From Escherichia phage vB_Eco_TB37, in the sequence record OZ035850: 64,000 nt of DNA, one strand, 5' to 3'. Made by a program: the position numbers and the translations under genes. This document shows, one piece after another, positions 2,798-21,064 of the stretch (positions are counted from its first letter, which is position 1; every line of letters starts with the position of its first letter). Under the pieces are notes generated by a model that made no database searches, had not been told where the DNA came from, and saw nothing but the letters and a program-made list of their open reading frames with translations.

Positions 2798-3800
2798 AGC
2801 TCACCAACTCAATCCAAGCTGGACGAAGTACATCTTGTACCATTTTAACTAATTCCTTCTTAATCAAAGAAGGATTATCTGCTTGAGTTAGAGTAATACC
2901 TTCACGAGAAGTTTCTTCCAAAATATCTTGAACAGTTAGCCCCATCACCTTTCCAAAATCCTTTGGACCAATTTCGCCAATTTTAGAAATAACGTTATTT
3001 ACCCGGTTCAGTGTAACGTAACAAGCTAAAATTCCCACCAATTTGTTATCAGCTTCTGATAGTTCAACTTTAGCTTTAATAGGCTTATCAGACTTTTTCT
3101 TTTCACTAAATTTGGAATTCTTGCATTTAATCGCTACACGATTGCGATTAGGCAGCCAAGAAGGATAACAAGGTTTCAATACATATCCTTCAGCGGTAAA
3201 TACTTCGCCTTTTGCTTCGGCATTCCAAACGCATTTATTTGCATCAACTAATCCAGCATGGTCTACTGTAAAATTATAATCTTGGACGACAGAATCTAAA
3301 TCATTTGGCAATTTAATAAGTTCTTCAAATTTACCGCGACCTAAAAGTGGAGCCATTTTAAATTTAAACGTATTACAGAATGATTCCATCATATAATCAT
3401 CGACATAAGTCACATCACCACTTTCTGTAGTAACAATAATGTCAAATACATAAAAATCTTTATCGCCATAATCAACATTCTTCTGAATGCCAGGTCCAGC
3501 GAATTCGCCAAAGACTTGATAAGATACAACCGCTGAGGTTTCCATAATATCTTGTACTGCTTTAATGGAATCAGCGTAATTCTTCAAAATAATTTCATAC
3601 CCAAAGAAATCTTCAGCAGGAAGAATCGGTCCAGTACGTTTAGCACAAGTTACTTTATCACGCTCAATAATCAATGAAAAGTTTGTACCATGAATCTTTT
3701 CACGAGCTACCCATTCGCCGCCAGTCAATCCTAAACTGTAAAGTTTTTCAATAAATTTAGAGTTGTAATGATTTTCAAGACTGCTATACTTTTTAAACAT
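2796..3800 (-). CDS. rnlB: RNA ligase 2
   Basis: 334 aa, [17 protein letters not shown]-terminus as T4 Rnl2; nucleotidyltransferase motif I EKIHGTN. Confidence 0.95.
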
Positions 3801-3809
3801 AATTAATCC

Positions 3810-4088
3810 TCAAAATGTAATTTCTAACCAATCACCATCACGCTGATCACTATTGACTTTAAAGCTAAATCCTTCTTTTCTCAGCCAATCACCAATTTCT
3901 TCAGTAATCAATTTATCGCGAGCAGTACAATAATAACTAAAATATGTTTTACCTTGTTCAGCTGCTTTATTAGCAAGTTCCGAAAAATCTTTAATAAAAC
4001 ACTCTAGTTTAAACTGTTTACTTTTAAGTGCTTTTTCGCGTAATTGATTAGCAAAAGATTCATTTTCATAAAGATCATACTGTTCCAT
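3810..4088 (-). CDS. Hypothetical protein (T4 24.2 position)
   Basis: 92-aa ORF in early-gene orientation between rnlB and hoc. Confidence 0.6.
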   Translation of the reverse strand: MEQYDLYENESFANQLREKALKSKQFKLECFIKDFSELANKAAEQGKTYFSYYCTARDKLITEEIGDWLRKEGFSFKVNSDQRDGDWLEITF

Positions 4089-4290
4089 TTTTCACCTTTT
4101 TATTAATATGTCTTTTTCTATAGACAACTTTTTCTCGAGTCTCAAATTTATTTTTAGCAGTCATAGCTCGAGCCCATAATACAGCCACTTCTTTTGCCTG
4201 TAAGTTCAATTCACGAGCAATTTCAATGAATGACTTTCCAGACTCATGAAGAGTAAACACCACAACCTCAGTTCTCATAATCAATCTCAT
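4075..4290 (-). CDS. Hypothetical protein (T4 24.3 position)
   Basis: 71-aa ORF overlapping the preceding ORF by 14 nt. Confidence 0.55.
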   Translation of the reverse strand: MRLIMRTEVVVFTLHESGKSFIEIARELNLQAKEVAVLWARAMTAKNKFETREKVVYRKRHINKKVKNGTV

Positions 4291-4339
4291 GTTATCGAGT
4301 GGGTGCCATTATATACATCATTTTCTGATTGTGTTTTGT

Positions 4340-4376
4340 GTGCTTTCAAAATGAAGAAAGGGGCCGAAGCCCCTAA
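4340..4376 (-). terminator. Terminator downstream of hoc
   Basis: GGGGC-CGAA-GCCCC hairpin followed on the minus strand by a T-rich tract. Confidence 0.55.
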
Positions 4377-4378
4377 GA

Positions 4379-5509
4379 TTATGGATAGGTATAGATGATA
4401 CCAGTTTCTAAAGCAGTTTTATGAATGATGTATCCATTGCGCGATTCTTGAACATCAACTTCTGGGTAGTCTTTCATCATCTTCTGAAGAGTGTAACGAT
4501 GCAAGTAGTACTTACTATCTGGGTCGTCAGTTTTCCAATCTTTACCTTCTTCAGTCATTTTTTGGATTTCATCCATAACCCACCAACCGCACCAGATATA
4601 AGCTGAAGTACGATGTGGAAGAGGATGAACATAAGGTAATTCACCTTCTGGTTCCGGAGCAACTTTATCAGTCACTTGAACTTGGCCTTCTGCTGTAATA
4701 GTTTTGCTATCATAATCAGCGGCGGTAACAGTTGCAGTAACTTCAATGGTTTGACTTCCAATAGATGATGTATCAACGGTGTATACATTAGTTGACCCTT
4801 CTACAGGAGAAGAATCTTTCTTCCATGAATATTCGATTTGTGCTTCTTCTGGAGCATCCGTAACATTAGCCGTAAATGTAGCCGAAGCATCTTGCTGGAC
4901 GTTAATAGAAGGAGGAGTCAATGTAACCTGTGGATTCATTGTTTTCTTATTAACTGTCAATGACACTTCATTAGAAGTAACTTCCTTTGCATCATAATCT
5001 GTCGCTGTTACTTGGGCTACGCATTTAATTCTTTTTACTCCACTTGTAGTTGGAGTATAGCTAAATGTAGCGGAAGTTGCTTCACTAACAGGAGAATCAT
5101 CTACATACCACTGATACGTAGCAGATACACTTGGTGGCTGTGAATCTAAAGCAGCGGTAAATTCAACAGCTGTTCCGATTACTCCAGCATCAGGGCTACC
5201 AGGAGTTACTGCCAAGGTAGTTGTTTGTGTCTTATTTTGAACTGTGATAGTTGTACTAATTTCAGCTGTTTCGGGACTACTATCGGCAACTTGATTGGTT
5301 GCAACTACTTTAATAGTTTTTTGACCGGCAGGTCCTTTTAGTACATAACTAAAAGTTGCTGACGTTTCTTCCTGTGGTGCATCATCAACAGTCCAAGCAT
5401 ATGTAATAGGTCCATCTCCAGTTTGACCACTGGGTGTAGCAGTAAACTGCTGAGTCTGATCTATAACTCCAGTAGGTGTTTTAGGAGTTATATCAACTGT
5501 AAAAGCCAT
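4379..5509 (-). CDS. hoc: Head outer capsid protein Hoc
   Basis: 376 aa; Ig-like repeats and C-terminus …YIIHKTALETGIIYTYP as in T4 Hoc. Confidence 0.95.
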   Translation of the reverse strand: MAFTVDITPKTPTGVIDQTQQFTATPSGQTGDGPITYAWTVDDAPQEETSATFSYVLKGPAGQKTIKVVATNQVADSSPETAEISTTITVQNKTQTTTLAVTPGSPDAGVIGTAVEFTAALDSQPPSVSATYQWYVDDSPVSEATSATFSYTPTTSGVKRIKCVAQVTATDYDAKEVTSNEVSLTVNKKTMNPQVTLTPPSINVQQDASATFTANVTDAPEEAQIEYSWKKDSSPVEGSTNVYTVDTSSIGSQTIEVTATVTAADYDSKTITAEGQVQVTDKVAPEPEGELPYVHPLPHRTSAYIWCGWWVMDEIQKMTEEGKDWKTDDPDSKYYLHRYTLQKMMKDYPEVDVQESRNGYIIHKTALETGIIYTYP

Positions 5510-5518
5510 AAGTTATCC

Positions 5519-6199
5519 TTATTTTAATGTTACGAAAGAAGAATTGCGTGTTTCACGAATTAAAACTGATCCGTCACGGTTAATGTAATAAATTAAGCTA
5601 AATAAAGTTTGGTGTGCTGACGCGTGTTCAAAACTAGTTGGGTGAGATTTCCAATCAGGAGTTTCAGCAATCCATTGATAAATCCACCAAGGAACAGTGC
5701 AGAATCCTGGATTTTTTCCAATCAGCTGAAGATTTGGGCTAAAGTTTTCTGGAAGAGTAAATACAGACGGCTTTTCAGATTCAATAATCTCAGCTACAGC
5801 CTGTTCGAATTTTTCTTCAACAAAAGGAGTATCTTCAATCAAAACATCGGTATTTTCAGGAATTTTATCCGTTTCTACTACTTCAATTTTAATGTCAGAT
5901 TTAACCGGAGAATCAATCAGAAGTGCTGCCTCTGGATTGACTTCTTCATCGTCATATTTTAATCCGTCTGCAGCATCAGCAGCATCAATTAAGTCTTTAA
6001 TAGATAACCCATCAGTCTCTGGCATAGGTTCACTAGCGAGCTTCTGGAGGGCTTCTTCAATATCATTAACGATATTATCAAAAGATTTATTCTTTTTGAC
6101 CTTTATACCAAACTGTTCAGCATATTCAGCTAATTTAGCTTTAGCTTCTTTATTATCATCAAGAGCCTTCAGCTCTGCAATATAATCTTTATCTATCAT
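5519..6199 (-). CDS. inh: Inh, inhibitor of prohead protease
   Basis: 226 aa, position between hoc and uvsW and length match T4 inh. Confidence 0.8.
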   Translation of the reverse strand: MIDKDYIAELKALDDNKEAKAKLAEYAEQFGIKVKKNKSFDNIVNDIEEALQKLASEPMPETDGLSIKDLIDAADAADGLKYDDEEVNPEAALLIDSPVKSDIKIEVVETDKIPENTDVLIEDTPFVEEKFEQAVAEIIESEKPSVFTLPENFSPNLQLIGKNPGFCTVPWWIYQWIAETPDWKSHPTSFEHASAHQTLFSLIYYINRDGSVLIRETRNSSFVTLK

Positions 6200-16291: not shown

Positions 16292-16324
16292 ATGGGGACC
16301 GAAAGGTCCCCATATTTTTATTTA
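16292..16324. terminator. Terminator between gene 54 and the convergent early ORF
   Basis: GGGGACC-GAAA-GGTCCCC hairpin followed by ATATTTTTATTT. Confidence 0.75.
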
Positions 16325-16608
16325 CGGAATGAAATGAAAGCAGAAACTGAAGCAACTAAACTGTCTTCAATATAAACTTCAATTTTTACCGGAGCTTCTG
16401 ACTCGAATTTACCTGTTACTACACCTTGGAAAATACTTTCAGTTTGTTCTGGCTTTGAAAAATTTTCAGAAGGAAAAATTCCGAACTTTTTATCTGTTCC
16501 AAAAATTTTGATAAATTCATCATAAACTGCTTCATTAAAAGCATTATCAGCAGGAATAACGCCTTCAACTACAAGTTCTTGACCTAAAAAGCGCAAAGAA
16601 GATTTCAT
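16318..16608 (-). CDS. Hypothetical protein (T4 alt.-3 position)
   Basis: 96-aa ORF directly downstream of an early promoter. Confidence 0.6.
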   Translation of the reverse strand: MKSSLRFLGQELVVEGVIPADNAFNEAVYDEFIKIFGTDKKFGIFPSENFSKPEQTESIFQGVVTGKFESEAPVKIEVYIEDSLVASVSAFISFRK

Positions 16609-16629: not shown

Positions 16630-16672
16630 CAGTAAGACTACTATAACACAACACGAGGGACTTGTAAACTAC
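16630..16672 (-). promoter_or_regulatory. Early promoter upstream of the alt.-3-position ORF
   Basis: Minus strand reads GTTTACA, 17-nt spacer, TTATAGT; 54 bp near-identical to the alc promoter region. Confidence 0.6.
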
Positions 16673-18726
16673 ATCTTGAACTTTTTAGACATTCCGTTGA
16701 TGTTAACCAAAGAAGCCAAGATTTGAGAAACTTCGTTTTCCTCTTCTTTTGATTCTTCTACAAGGAATTGATTAAATCCAGCCATTGGACGAACTTCACC
16801 AGTTTCCATTAAATGGTCGCCATCATATACTGATTCTTCTAATTGTTCAGAAGGAGGAACGATTGTACCTTCGATTAGATACTTGTTATAAGCAGTTTCT
16901 TTCATAAAGTACGTACTTACTTTATTAATCTTCAGTAAAATTCCACGCGGTAGAATAACTTCAGCTTCTGATGGAAATCCTGATAAATGACCTGGAACGA
17001 TAACTTTGATTCGCTCAGCTCCTTTAATTACCATACCCACGCTAGTTTCAGCATCTTCAATGGCATATGTAGAATGACTACCCATATGCATTAAATCTTC
17101 TGCATCAACGGAACCTTCTCCTTCGCCAGAAAATACTGCGCCGGAATCATCTAGAGCCATATAGTTTTTACCATGCTCACCGAAGATATTTGGTTTAAGT
17201 GATGTCGATACGAAGTTCTTGAAATAGAACATTTTGTTTTCAATGTTATGACGCAAAGTTTTAAAGGTAACTTCTTGTCCACGGTAAAGTGTAGTTCCTG
17301 GAGGAAGAACTGATCCTTTGGCAAAGGCAGAATCCAACGTCTCGATGTGCTTAATAGCTCGTTCCATATATTCTTCACGGGTAGAATCTGGTTTACCCAA
17401 AAGGAACGAGTTCATTTCAACATATGAATCTGCACAATAATCTTCAATTACATCAGATTCAGCTTGGGTTAATCCTTTTGGAGTTACTTCGGTGCTTGCG
17501 TATTCATATGCCTGGGCAGCAGATTCATTAATCAATTTATAAATGCCATTCATGACAAATTGAATAATAGCTGTCTTTTCATCTGGCGTAGCTTTAGAAC
17601 CTTTAACTAAATCATTAATAATTTTCTTAATAACATCAAAGCTATTAGAAATATTAATGTCAGCAAGATCGCTTAAAATTTTATCAGTTTTATAATCAAA
17701 GAATTCTTTATTCTTTAAATATTCTTGAGAACCTTGATATGTTATATCGCTCTGCAACTTGATAGATGGATCACGTAAACGTGCATGGGCTAATGCAATA
17801 TGATTTCGGAAGTTTTCTAGTTCATAATCGTTAGATTTAAAACGAGAAGCACTTCTCATACCACCGATAGCTCCTTTGCTAAAGTTTGAACCAATCTGGA
17901 TAACCCCGGAGTTCATCGGACCTTCTGCTTTATATACCGGAACTTTAGATTCAAACTCTTGATATTTCTTGGCAGCGAAGCTATCACCCTGGAGTGAAGC
18001 ATCAACAGTAGAATATTGAGCTTGTGCTGCTAATCGACGACTAATTTTAGTTTTCTGAATAACAGCTTGATCCGTGCGCTTATCATTTTCTAAAGCAATA
18101 GAAGCAGCAACAGCAACAGCTTTAGGAACAGCATTACCTGTTTTAACGTCTACATAAACATCACCAACCTTTGATTCAACTTTTGTGAATAACTCAGTTG
18201 AAATAGGAGGTACACCTGGAATGTCTTCTAAATTGGCATTTTTACGGTAAACCATAATATATGCATATTTCTTATCATAGTCCCAGATTTCCTTTAAGAG
18301 AACATATCGACCTGCTCCTTTAGTACGTACTAAACGGTCAGCAATAACTTGCATTTGACGAGCTGCGCCATTTGTTTTACTCTTTAGTACGCGGAATAGG
18401 CATGCGTCGATTTTATACTGTTTCATTGTTTGAAGAGCAGTATCAAAAACAGCATTAATGACGCCAATTGGATTTCCACCCAAGTTTCTAAGCTTAACCA
18501 GCGATAATTTCTCGTTGACACCTATCATTACGATATGCATCATTTTATCGCCCGGCTTAACGTTTTTATTTGTATCACCGCCAGAGGTGTATGTACAAAA
18601 TCTAAATCCAGGAAGCACGCTTTCTTCACCGGCTTGAATAGCAAAAATTTGAGGTATTTTATGCTTAGGATTTAAGTTAACAACCGGCGCCGAAGCGCCG
18701 TCAAATAATTCTGTAATAAGTTCCAT
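16669..18726 (-). CDS. Alt-like ADP-ribosyltransferase, second paralog
   Basis: 685 aa; N-terminus MELITELFD…; R-S-ExE signature read as YRGQ, FVSTSL, EAEVILPRG. Confidence 0.85.
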   Translation of the reverse strand: MELITELFDGASAPVVNLNPKHKIPQIFAIQAGEESVLPGFRFCTYTSGGDTNKNVKPGDKMMHIVMIGVNEKLSLVKLRNLGGNPIGVINAVFDTALQTMKQYKIDACLFRVLKSKTNGAARQMQVIADRLVRTKGAGRYVLLKEIWDYDKKYAYIMVYRKNANLEDIPGVPPISTELFTKVESKVGDVYVDVKTGNAVPKAVAVAASIALENDKRTDQAVIQKTKISRRLAAQAQYSTVDASLQGDSFAAKKYQEFESKVPVYKAEGPMNSGVIQIGSNFSKGAIGGMRSASRFKSNDYELENFRNHIALAHARLRDPSIKLQSDITYQGSQEYLKNKEFFDYKTDKILSDLADINISNSFDVIKKIINDLVKGSKATPDEKTAIIQFVMNGIYKLINESAAQAYEYASTEVTPKGLTQAESDVIEDYCADSYVEMNSFLLGKPDSTREEYMERAIKHIETLDSAFAKGSVLPPGTTLYRGQEVTFKTLRHNIENKMFYFKNFVSTSLKPNIFGEHGKNYMALDDSGAVFSGEGEGSVDAEDLMHMGSHSTYAIEDAETSVGMVIKGAERIKVIVPGHLSGFPSEAEVILPRGILLKINKVSTYFMKETAYNKYLIEGTIVPPSEQLEESVYDGDHLMETGEVRPMAGFNQFLVEESKEEENEVSQILASLVNINGMSKKFKM

Positions 18727-18729
18727 GAT

Positions 18730-20826
18730 TTATCCTTGAACGAACTTGTAAGGCATGTTTGTAATATCTATGCAAGACGCAATAATTCCAAGAGATGATT
18801 CTACTTTCTGTTTAATATTTGATGAAACAAATGATGCAAAGTCAACTCTGTCTTCTATTTCAATATCACCTGTCATTGCAACTACTTCGCCGGTTTCCAT
18901 TAAACGGTCTCCGTCATAGATTACCGATTCGGTGAGTTCTTCCGTGGTCATAACTTCAGCTTGAATGAGTTTTGTATTATTAGATGTTGTTCCGTCATTA
19001 TTAGAAGCATCGGTTATTTTATTAACTTTGACCATCAATCCGCGCGGTAGAATAACTTCAGCTTCTGTTGCTATTCCGAGACTTCCTGGATATACAACAT
19101 TAACTTTATGAGCTCCATCAATTGCCCATCCTATTTGAACTTTAACGTATTCAGGATTTTCTTTATACGCTCTTATTTCGTTTGGATTAATAGTTATTCC
19201 TTCTTCATTTTTATCAACTGTTAATTCATTACGAGCTTCTGGTTCTAAAAGACCAATACCAGCATGTGTAATTCCAAAACGTCCAAAAATGATAGGAGTT
19301 AAAGAAGTAGATACAAAATTTCTGAAATAGAACACTTTATTTTTAACTAGTGCTTCGTATATAGGAGCAGTCATACTTTGAGCACGATAAACTGTAATGC
19401 CTTCCGGTATGCGGTCACCATTTTCAAAAGCTGAATCTAAATTATTTATAGCAGATTCAATTTCTTTTTCACTCATTACATCATATCGTTCTGGATTGTA
19501 ACGACCTAAAAGAAGATTATTAATGTCTGTATATCCTGAACCGCAATATTCTCTAATGCCACGCTTTTGTGATGGAGTATATTTAGAACCATCACGGGCA
19601 ATAGTAATATCAATCATTGGACCAGCACCAATTCCAGAAAAGCTATAAATCATTCGTTTGAGGAATTTAGTTTTTGCTGCATTCCAGGCATTTTTAGTTA
19701 TTTCTCCCCAGACTTCATCTGGCTGCCCTTTACGAGTTTTATTATGTTTATCAAGCCAATTATCTTTATATTCTTCAAAGAGTTGATTAACAGCTGCTGC
19801 GTATTTCTCTAAACATTTTATTGAAGTAGTTGGTTCATTTTTAATCGCATTAAGAATTACATCTTTAATTTTTTCAGAAACTTCATTAACCTCACTTTTT
19901 GAAAAGAATTTATAGTCATAATGAAGTTCATTCGCAGTTCCTTCGGCAATAATTTTTGCTGCCTTAGTTTTAGAAGCTAATGAATTAATTCCAAGCTTCA
20001 TTTCTTCTGCTTCGGGAATTAAAGGAGCGGTAGCAGGTTTATTGAAATTAGCTGCGGTAGATTCATACTTCTGGAATAATTCACTTTCAAATCTAGAAGA
20101 TTCCAATGATTGACTTTGCGCAATTGCTCTACGGGAAATTTTAACTTTAACGATTACAGCTTGGTCAGAACGTTTATCATTTTCTTGTGCAATAGATGCT
20201 GCAATTGCCTCATTTTTAGTTACTTGAGCTCCAGTATCTTTATTGATATAAACATCGCCGACTTTCGATTCAACTTTAGTAAAGAGCTCGGTACTAATTT
20301 CCGGAACTCCTGGAATGTCTTCTAGTGATACATTTTTGCGATGTATAAGAATATATGCATACTTTTTATCATAATCCCAGAGTTCCTTAAGAAGGACGTA
20401 TCTGCCACCTGAACGACTACGGATAAGTCTATCAGCAATAACTTGAATTTGTCGAGCTTGACCAGCGGTTTTAGACTTAAGAATACGAAGCATACAAGCA
20501 TCAATTTTATACTGACGCATTGTTTGCATTGCAACAGTAAAAACTGAATTGATATAATTAATTGGGCTTGGACCGAGACCTTTTAATTTAGCAATTGAAC
20601 CTTTGGCAGTTAATGTAAAAGGAACAATATGCATCATTTTATCGCCCATCTTTAAATCGCGATTAGTATCACCTCCAGATGTATAGGTACATAAACGAAA
20701 TCCTGGTTGTTCAATTGCATCATCAACGTGAACTGAAAAAATTTGTGGTATTTTCTTCTTTGGATTTAAGTTTGTAATCGGAAGAGTAGTATCTTCGTCA
20801 AATAATTCTGTAATGAGTTCCATCAT
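18730..20826 (-). CDS. alt: Alt ADP-ribosyltransferase (packaged, injected)
   Basis: 698 aa; N-terminal 200 aa nearly identical to T4 Alt; YRAQ, FVSTSL, EAEVILPRG motifs; late promoter upstream. Confidence 0.9.
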   Translation of the reverse strand: MMELITELFDEDTTLPITNLNPKKKIPQIFSVHVDDAIEQPGFRLCTYTSGGDTNRDLKMGDKMMHIVPFTLTAKGSIAKLKGLGPSPINYINSVFTVAMQTMRQYKIDACMLRILKSKTAGQARQIQVIADRLIRSRSGGRYVLLKELWDYDKKYAYILIHRKNVSLEDIPGVPEISTELFTKVESKVGDVYINKDTGAQVTKNEAIAASIAQENDKRSDQAVIVKVKISRRAIAQSQSLESSRFESELFQKYESTAANFNKPATAPLIPEAEEMKLGINSLASKTKAAKIIAEGTANELHYDYKFFSKSEVNEVSEKIKDVILNAIKNEPTTSIKCLEKYAAAVNQLFEEYKDNWLDKHNKTRKGQPDEVWGEITKNAWNAAKTKFLKRMIYSFSGIGAGPMIDITIARDGSKYTPSQKRGIREYCGSGYTDINNLLLGRYNPERYDVMSEKEIESAINNLDSAFENGDRIPEGITVYRAQSMTAPIYEALVKNKVFYFRNFVSTSLTPIIFGRFGITHAGIGLLEPEARNELTVDKNEEGITINPNEIRAYKENPEYVKVQIGWAIDGAHKVNVVYPGSLGIATEAEVILPRGLMVKVNKITDASNNDGTTSNNTKLIQAEVMTTEELTESVIYDGDRLMETGEVVAMTGDIEIEDRVDFASFVSSNIKQKVESSLGIIASCIDITNMPYKFVQG

Positions 20827-20846: not shown

Positions 20847-20854
20847 TATTTATA
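20847..20854 (-). promoter_or_regulatory. Late promoter (TATAAATA) for alt
   Basis: TATAAATA on the minus strand about 21 nt upstream of the alt ATG; AGAGAGGA RBS between. Confidence 0.6.
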
Positions 20855-20875
20855 AAATTAAAGGCCCGAAGGCCT

Positions 20876-21064
20876 TTAATAATCTATTGGTAAGAGAGTA
20901 CGATATATTTCAAACTTTGGACCTTTTTCATAAGCATCAAAAGTTTCTGTGAATTTATTATAAGCATATGCATCTATAAATTCAATCATGATTTGTGATA
21001 CAGAAGTAGAAACATCTCCACCTTCTTTTTGAGCCACGACAATTGTTTCTAAGTAAGCTTTCAT
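20876..21064 (-). CDS. Hypothetical protein
   Basis: 62-aa ORF between gene 30 and alt; stop lies within a GC hairpin. Confidence 0.45.
   Translation of the reverse strand: MKAYLETIVVAQKEGGDVSTSVSQIMIEFIDAYAYNKFTETFDAYEKGPKFEIYRTLLPIDY

Follow-up and report, generated by a model that had tools for sequence, protein, structure and literature searches.

Does a T-even phage that carries two full-length alt genes side by side make two working ADP-ribosyltransferases, and what would the second one do? This question arises at the alt locus of Escherichia phage vB_Eco_TB37 (sequence record OZ035850), analysed within a window of 64,000 nucleotides. Two intact open reading frames (ORFs) lie there in tandem on the minus strand, 3 nt apart: the alt ortholog at 18730..20826 (698 aa) and a gene of 2,058 nt at 16669..18726 (685 aa). 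The latter is a second full-length Alt paralog, called alt.-2 after its name in phage RB32, and it belongs to the lineage of Dhakavirus altB. Both genes encode intact R-S-ExE ADP-ribosyltransferases (ARTs) with the full architecture of T4 Alt.

Alignment and profile searches relate the two products along their whole length. They are 41% identical from end to end (E = 5e-162), a similarity far beyond chance, and both match the family phrog_802 ('Alt-like RNA polymerase ADP-ribosyltransferase') end to end. The Pfam profile PF03496 (ADPrib_exo_Tox), with a gathering cut-off of 23.4 bits, scores 129.2 bits in alt and 71.8 bits in alt.-2. The signature motifs are YRAQ 479-482, FVSTSL 503-508 and EAEVILPRG 587-595 in alt, and YRGQ 481-484, FVSTSL 505-510 and EAEVILPRG 587-595 in alt.-2. 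The catalytic residues of alt are R480, S505-T506-S507 and E587-x-E589; those of alt.-2 are R482 (17281-17283), S507-T508-S509 (17200-17208), E587 (16966-16968) and E589 (16960-16962), all encoded on the minus strand. In a multiple alignment, the R, S and E-x-E columns are invariant among alt, alt.-2, T4 Alt, ModA and ModB. Profile and motifs, together with the ART fold of alt.-2, place both proteins in the R-S-E clade and the Alt/VIP2 clade, and the presence of ExE rather than QxE suggests arginine as the acceptor. No family in NCBIfam matches either protein.

These results bear out the sequence-only reading, an earlier note made from the letters of this DNA, in its central claim of a tandem pair of full-length Alt-type ARTs: the ORFs, the 41% identity and PF03496 in both products all agree with it. 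Every motif that it quoted for the R-S-ExE signature is located in both proteins, and the pairwise alignment that it called for gives full-length homology, with catalytic columns shared with T4 Alt, ModA and ModB. Its description of a highly similar N-terminus and a diverged centre is right about the centre (18% identity) and partly right about the N-terminus, where 67% identity is substantial and not near-identity. The shared start MELITELFD that it gave for both products is correct for alt.-2, and not for the 698-aa alt ORF, which begins MMELITELFD.

That difference comes from the mechanical ORF call of alt, which opens with two consecutive ATG codons (20821-20826), a doublet also present in T4, T2 and T6. 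The second ATG is the annotated start in T4, T2 and RB32, and it yields a protein of 697 aa with MELITE at 20823 (gene coordinates 18730..20823). With this start, the gp21 cleavage site has the number under which it was published, ITE-6, and residues of TB37 alt are numbered here with MELITE = 1.

Domain anatomy and predicted processing sites

The alt.-2 protein is divided into segments that diverge from alt to very different degrees, all encoded on the minus strand. Residues 1-6 (18709..18726), MELITE, form a predicted N-terminal propeptide ending at ITE-6 and are identical in alt, alt.-2 and T4 Alt. Residues 7-235 (18022..18708) make up an alpha/beta N-terminal domain common to both paralogs, at 67% identity. 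The all-helical central domain that follows, residues 236-415 (17482..18021), is only 18% identical to alt and 46% identical to AltB of Dhakavirus phage IME08. The ART domain, defined by PF03496, the motifs and a structure model, covers residues 416-631 (16834..17481) and is 36% identical between the paralogs; its least conserved stretch, around residues 526-557, falls to 11%. Residues 632-685 (16672..16833), 44% identical, form a predicted C-terminal propeptide that contains the conserved motif YDGDHLMETGE and follows LEE-631, a gp21-type site aligned with LTE-619 of T4.

An AlphaFold model of full-length alt.-2 (pLDDT 72.6, pTM 0.60) shows four parts: the alpha/beta N-terminal domain (about 12-215), a flexible linker, the helical domain (about 250-415) and the ART domain (about 416-625). 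The stretch from STS to ExE holds a highly divergent insert (residues 517-555) that is modelled with low confidence, and confidence falls again from residue 629, where the predicted propeptide starts. Foldseek comparison of the modelled ART domain finds the toxins Vis, C3, iota, CDTa, VIP2 and Certhrax, each with probability 1.0 and with TM scores of 0.56-0.63 when normalised to the single-domain targets. In these toxins, recognition of NAD and substrate depends in part on the loops that link STS to ExE. A PDB sequence search with alt.-2 returned no match at E <= 0.01, and therefore no Alt structure is available. Precomputed annotations list a further family, PF26846, on nearly all full-length Alt homologs (P0001-P0120). 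It presumably covers a part of Alt outside the ART domain; the local Pfam scan of alt and alt.-2 reported only PF03496 at E <= 0.01.

Both paralogs also carry candidate processing sites like those of T4 Alt. T4 Alt is a protein of the prohead core, present in about 40 copies (PMC9026906), and the gp21 protease cuts it at ITE-6 and LTE-619 to give a mature protein of 68.2 kDa (PMC5694885), a value that the computed mass of mature T4 Alt reproduces (68.2 kDa). In TB37, gp21-type sites lie at ITE-6 and LTE-632 of alt, with a predicted mature protein of residues 7-632 and 70.0 kDa, and at ITE-6 and LEE-631 of alt.-2, with a predicted mature protein of 69.2 kDa. The sites in both proteins occupy positions aligned with those of T4 Alt, LEE-631 corresponding to LTE-619, and it is only because of this alignment that their retention is supportive. 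A conserved SV(I)YDGDxLMETGE motif follows the C-terminal site in both. For alt.-2, a propeptide and gp21-type sites would serve no evident need in a protein that never entered the prohead.

Distribution, the T4 remnant and the effector lineages

The tandem alt pair is already known and annotated and is normal for most T-even phages; T4, which lost most of the second gene, is the odd one out. Many Tequatrovirus genomes, among them T2, RB32, RB27 and RB33, match the 4.9-kb region at 97.5-98.8% identity, and in 338 phage records a single match spans at least 80% of it. A tblastn search with alt.-2 finds about 400 phage records at no less than 90% amino-acid identity (194 at 99% or above and 202 at 95-99%), and the 90%-identity cluster of the protein in a large protein collection has 772 member sequences. 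Public records of alt itself fall into two identity classes, at least 90% (316 records) and 60-80% (212 records). The same alt and alt.-2 pair is present in T2, T6 and RB32 (YP_803137 and YP_803136 in RB32), in the same slot between alt.1/gene 30 and alt.-3/gene 54. T2 and RB32 are 97.5-97.8% identical in nucleotide sequence over the 4.9-kb query, and T6 has the same gene layout. TB37 does not differ from these phages in substance and is another member of the group: a T2-like Tequatrovirus with the common, ancestral form of the alt locus.

Prior annotation varies in detail. RefSeq names both genes 'Alt-like RNA polymerase ADP-ribosyltransferase', the RB32 record describes the second as 'alt.-2 ... 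similar to alt', and some GenBank records still list it as 'hypothetical protein'. Dhakavirus IME08 has altA and altB annotated in the same slot, an 'alt gene duplication' is mentioned in the record of Acinetobacter phage Ac42, and two alt copies are present in Moonvirus CF1. A comparative paper of 2006 counted among the alt paralogs both T4 alt.-1 and alt.-2 and ORFs from phages RB49 and 44RR (PMC1524935). The unusualness implied by the sequence-only reading does not survive this comparison, since T2, T6, RB32 and some 400 further deposited genomes have the pair as their standard arrangement, with both genes annotated as Alt-like. Its statement that T4 has one intact alt plus small alt.-1 and alt.-2 ORFs agrees with the T4 record. 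That reading had said that the standard T4 arrangement would speak against it; the locus has instead the standard arrangement of T2 and T6.

The arrangement is thus close to textbook knowledge and annotated already, so that its description changes little. What follows from it is a different view of T4, which is atypical at this locus: injected ADP-ribosylation is known almost wholly from a phage that has lost one member of an enzyme pair found in most of its relatives. The lost enzyme is abundant and tightly conserved and, as far as the literature searched shows, uncharacterised; no experimental study of it (virion proteomics, targets, or work in T2 or JS98) was found there, and the word Alt is absent from PMC12373910.

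Alignment with T4 explains the small ORFs. The T4 record states that 'alt.-1 and alt.-2 together reflect an old duplication of the first part of gene alt'. The DNA of these ORFs is about 95% identical to the first ~340 nt of the TB37 alt.-2 gene, and the alignment then skips to its final ~20 nt. The missing segment, 1,699 nt at 16688..18387 on the minus strand, lies between CTAAA(G/A)AGT microhomologies at positions 340 and 2039 of the gene; in TB37, CTAAAGAGT starts at 18387 and CTAAAAAGT at 16688. A 1-nt deletion in an A-run, which shifts the frame, accounts for the split into alt.-1 and alt.-2. What remains in T4 is 390 nt, which encode roughly the first 116 of the 685 residues; the ART domain is missing altogether.

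Two further lines of evidence point the same way. Two small PHROG families, phrog_23015 and phrog_15247, seem from their length and the positions that they match to represent the T4 fragments, and they fit alt.-2 (2e-40 and 1e-37) far better than alt (1e-21 and 2e-19). A 201-nt probe across the T4 junction finds a one-piece match in only 91 records and a split match in about 400. TB37 lacks the T4-type junction and has the complete 2,058-nt gene. Because of the alignment, the preference of the PHROG matches for alt.-2 and the restriction of the junction to 91 records, the T4 ORFs are what is left of the full-length paralog and do not stem from a duplication confined to the start of alt. In RB32, the note of an 'apparent insertion in alt.-2' reverses the direction of the event.

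The complete gene is under strong purifying selection. Among TB37, RB32, T2 and T6, alt.-2 has a dN/dS of 0.02-0.05 at a dS of 0.10-0.14, and it is held as tightly as alt, at 0.02-0.06 in the same phages. Domain-wise comparison shows that the paralogs belong to different effector lineages, whose members share no more than 19% identity in the central domain and 35-40% in the ART domain. The alt.-2 body is 46% (central), 55% (ART) and 67% (C-terminal tail) identical to IME08 AltB, and 25% (central) and 47% (ART) identical to the downstream copy of Moonvirus CF1. It represents a lineage distinct from alt and common to Dhakavirus AltB and the CF1 copy.

The body of alt tells a related story. TB37 alt is the ortholog of T4 Alt (NP_049811) and 70% identical to it overall, with about 99.6% over residues 1-248, 33% in the central domain and 67% in the ART domain. 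Against IME08 AltA (3489-5579 of locus L004), the values are 66% for the central domain and 95% for the ART domain. The gene is thus mosaic, a pattern that suggests exchange of the effector cassette between genera. AltA of Dhakavirus groups with TB37 alt and AltB with alt.-2, and in JS98 and IME08 the two genes have the same slot, order and adjacency as in TB37. They abut in the IME08 record; with a start at the in-frame ATG that lies 3 nt downstream, the junction reads TAA-ata-ATG.

The N-terminal domains follow the genome and not the effector lineage. Within a genome they are 67% identical in Tequatrovirus, 66% in Dhakavirus and 57% in Ac42; between Tequatrovirus and Dhakavirus orthologs, only 41-46%. 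Recent gene conversion of these domains in TB37 was considered and is ruled out by their nucleotide identity of 60-72% and dS of 0.9-3, so that either older events or a constraint particular to the lineage must account for the similarity within a genome. The simplest reading of the domain-wise identities, a well-supported sketch, would be an old duplication with a lineage-specific N-terminal module and with effector cassettes that were exchanged and reshuffled. Such cassette-like swapping of effector bodies among genera would be a neat example of how an injected phage protein can evolve by modules.

The alt allele and the presence of alt.-2 assort independently; phage Jbel, for example, combines a T4-type alt (70% identity to TB37 alt) with a full-length alt.-2. 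Escherichia phage vB_EcoM_SCS4 (ON506924; 2601-4661 of locus L005), whose record annotates every gene of the locus as 'hypothetical protein', has a single chimeric alt gene. Its product is 100% identical to TB37 alt until about residue 150 and then 95-100% identical to alt.-2, which looks like the expected, deletion-like product of recombination between tandem copies. The alt.-2 effector can therefore be a phage's only Alt. In Citrobacter phage CF1 (MG250484; 3501-5623 of locus L009), the downstream copy appears as two overlapping ORFs of 392 and 315 aa that keep LYRGQ, YVSTSL and EAEVILP. The split reflects either a frameshifted pseudogene or a sequencing error.

Proposed role of the second enzyme

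Taken by analogy with T4 Alt, these features point to alt.-2 as a probable second effector beside Alt. Both paralogs would be made late in infection and built into the prohead core. The gp21 protease would trim each of them at ITE-6 and at an L-x-E site about 55-65 residues from the C-terminus. After injection with the DNA, both would use NAD+ to ADP-ribosylate arginines of host proteins, and each paralog would owe targets of its own to its ART loops and to the exchangeable central domain. Most T-even phages would then inject two such enzymes where T4 injects one.

The known systems delimit this analogy. T4 Alt is a head-packaged, injected arginine mono-ADP-ribosyltransferase, and alt.-2 is 41% identical to it from end to end, keeps its domain order and catalytic residues and has aligned gp21 sites; activity, packaging and targets are established for T4 Alt only. 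ModA and ModB of T4 share the R-S-ExE columns of the pair. Unlike Alt, they are proteins of about 200 aa, 16-19% identical, that lack the N-terminal domain, the central domain and the propeptides; they are early and non-packaged, and their genes lie elsewhere in the genome. With the toxins C3, Vis, iota-CDTa-VIP2 and Certhrax, the common element is the fold of the ART domain.

Several points weigh against an injected effector with its own targets. Alt itself is non-essential (PMC9026906) and T4 grows well without alt.-2; any role of alt.-2 is therefore conditional. Separate targets are suggested by sequence divergence only. T4 Alt modifies many proteins, and the target sets of the two enzymes could therefore overlap. 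Triplets of the form (L/I)-x-E are frequent, with 7 in alt.-2 and 11 in alt. At its pLDDT of 72.6 the alt.-2 model is only moderately confident, and the region from STS to ExE is poorly modelled. Direct evidence for alt.-2 in virions, for its injection, its activity or particular targets was not found in the literature searched.

The alternatives differ in which of these steps they deny. It is unlikely that alt.-2 is an active late ART that stays unpackaged and acts inside the producing cell on host or phage proteins: packaging has been shown for T4 Alt only, which leaves room for such a role, and yet alt.-2 keeps the MELITE propeptide, an Alt-like N-terminal domain and both aligned gp21 sites, and is probably translated from the same late message directly after alt. 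Somewhat less likely still is a back-up or dosage copy, packaged and directed at the same host targets as Alt, chiefly the alpha subunit of RNA polymerase. In its favour, alt.-2 has the architecture and catalytic residues of alt and probably its transcription unit, T4 manages without the gene, and SCS4 has one chimeric gene only. A mere dosage gene, however, should have been homogenised, or its loss should be commoner than the 91 cases among about 500 records, and the two bodies are only 18% (central) and 36% (ART) identical. Tequatrovirus and Dhakavirus keep the two effector lineages apart, Moonvirus has a related downstream copy, and the low dN/dS of 0.02-0.05 shows that each sequence is kept as it is.

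Decay is the least probable of these explanations, and a very improbable one. An inactive pseudo-enzyme or emerging pseudogene would have its end point in T4 and 90 other records with a truncated gene, and in Moonvirus CF1, where the copy is split into two ORFs. The TB37 gene, by contrast, has an intact frame of 685 codons with R, S-T-S and E-x-E all in place, the same low dN/dS, and about 396 records that are at least 95% identical to it in amino-acid sequence.

Beyond the favoured reading of a packaged second effector lies a broader and more tentative idea. The alt.-2/AltB lineage might be a second injected ART with host targets of its own, possibly a defence or stress protein, that was overlooked since T4 deleted the gene. 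Alt would then be modular, with a phage-specific N-terminal packaging domain joined to effector cassettes that pass between genera and are reshuffled when the tandem copies recombine. If so, alt.-2 could account for some of the ways in which T2, T4 and T6 differ in host range or in sensitivity to defence systems.

Expression layout and neighbouring genes

The region before alt has a compact layout of hairpin, TATAAATA box, Shine-Dalgarno sequence and start codon, conserved in T4, T2 and T6. The hairpin, AAAGGCC-TTCG-GGCCTTT at 20860..20877 on the minus strand, was read from the sequence over the stop of alt.1, is invariant in T4, T2, T6 and IME08, and is likely the terminator of the unit upstream of alt; the consensus terminator scan did not list it. 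The exact T4 late-promoter -10 consensus, TATAAATA, stands at 20847..20854 on the same strand, 21 nt before the first ATG of alt, and is also conserved in T4, T2 and T6. It presumably acts as a late promoter, as established T4 knowledge would have it.

The junction between the genes is just as tight. The stop codon of alt (TAA) is separated from the ATG of alt.-2 by a 3-nt spacer (18727..18729, minus strand), and the AAGGA Shine-Dalgarno sequence of alt.-2 is located within the 3' end of alt. T4, T2 and T6 have exactly this junction, and that of IME08 resembles it. Since no TATAAATA lies between the two genes, alt and alt.-2 are probably co-transcribed, with coupled translation. The consensus box and the gene layout suggest a single late transcription unit for the pair.

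A second exact copy of TATAAATA occurs within the alt coding sequence (19443-19450, minus strand), about 1.37 kb from the alt start. In such AT-rich DNA it has probably arisen by chance, but it could also be an internal late promoter that feeds alt.-2. Between the alt.-2 stop and alt.-3 lies a sigma-70-type promoter-like site at 16640..16668 (minus strand; TTTACA-17-TATAGT, TG-extended), which is a consensus match only. The sigma-70 promoter scan found sites no more commonly than in shuffled sequence (19 vs 18.9), and therefore only the T4-specific TATAAATA box is used here.

The last gene of the cluster is alt.-3 (16318..16608, minus strand), a DUF5498 protein of 96 aa identified from its ORF and Pfam. 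C-terminal extension mutants of T4 Alt.-3 escape the CmdTAC defence system (PMC11618068), and the numerous mentions of 'Alt' in that paper refer to alt.-3, not to the ARTs (PMC11618068). According to the ORF list, Pfam and the T4 record, the neighbours of the pair follow the T4 order: alt.-3, the two alt genes, alt.1, DNA ligase gp30 and homologs of 30.1 and 30.2 on the minus strand, and gp29, gp48 and gp54 beside them on the plus strand. A two-way terminator-like hairpin at 16292..16313 lies between alt.-3 and gene 54.

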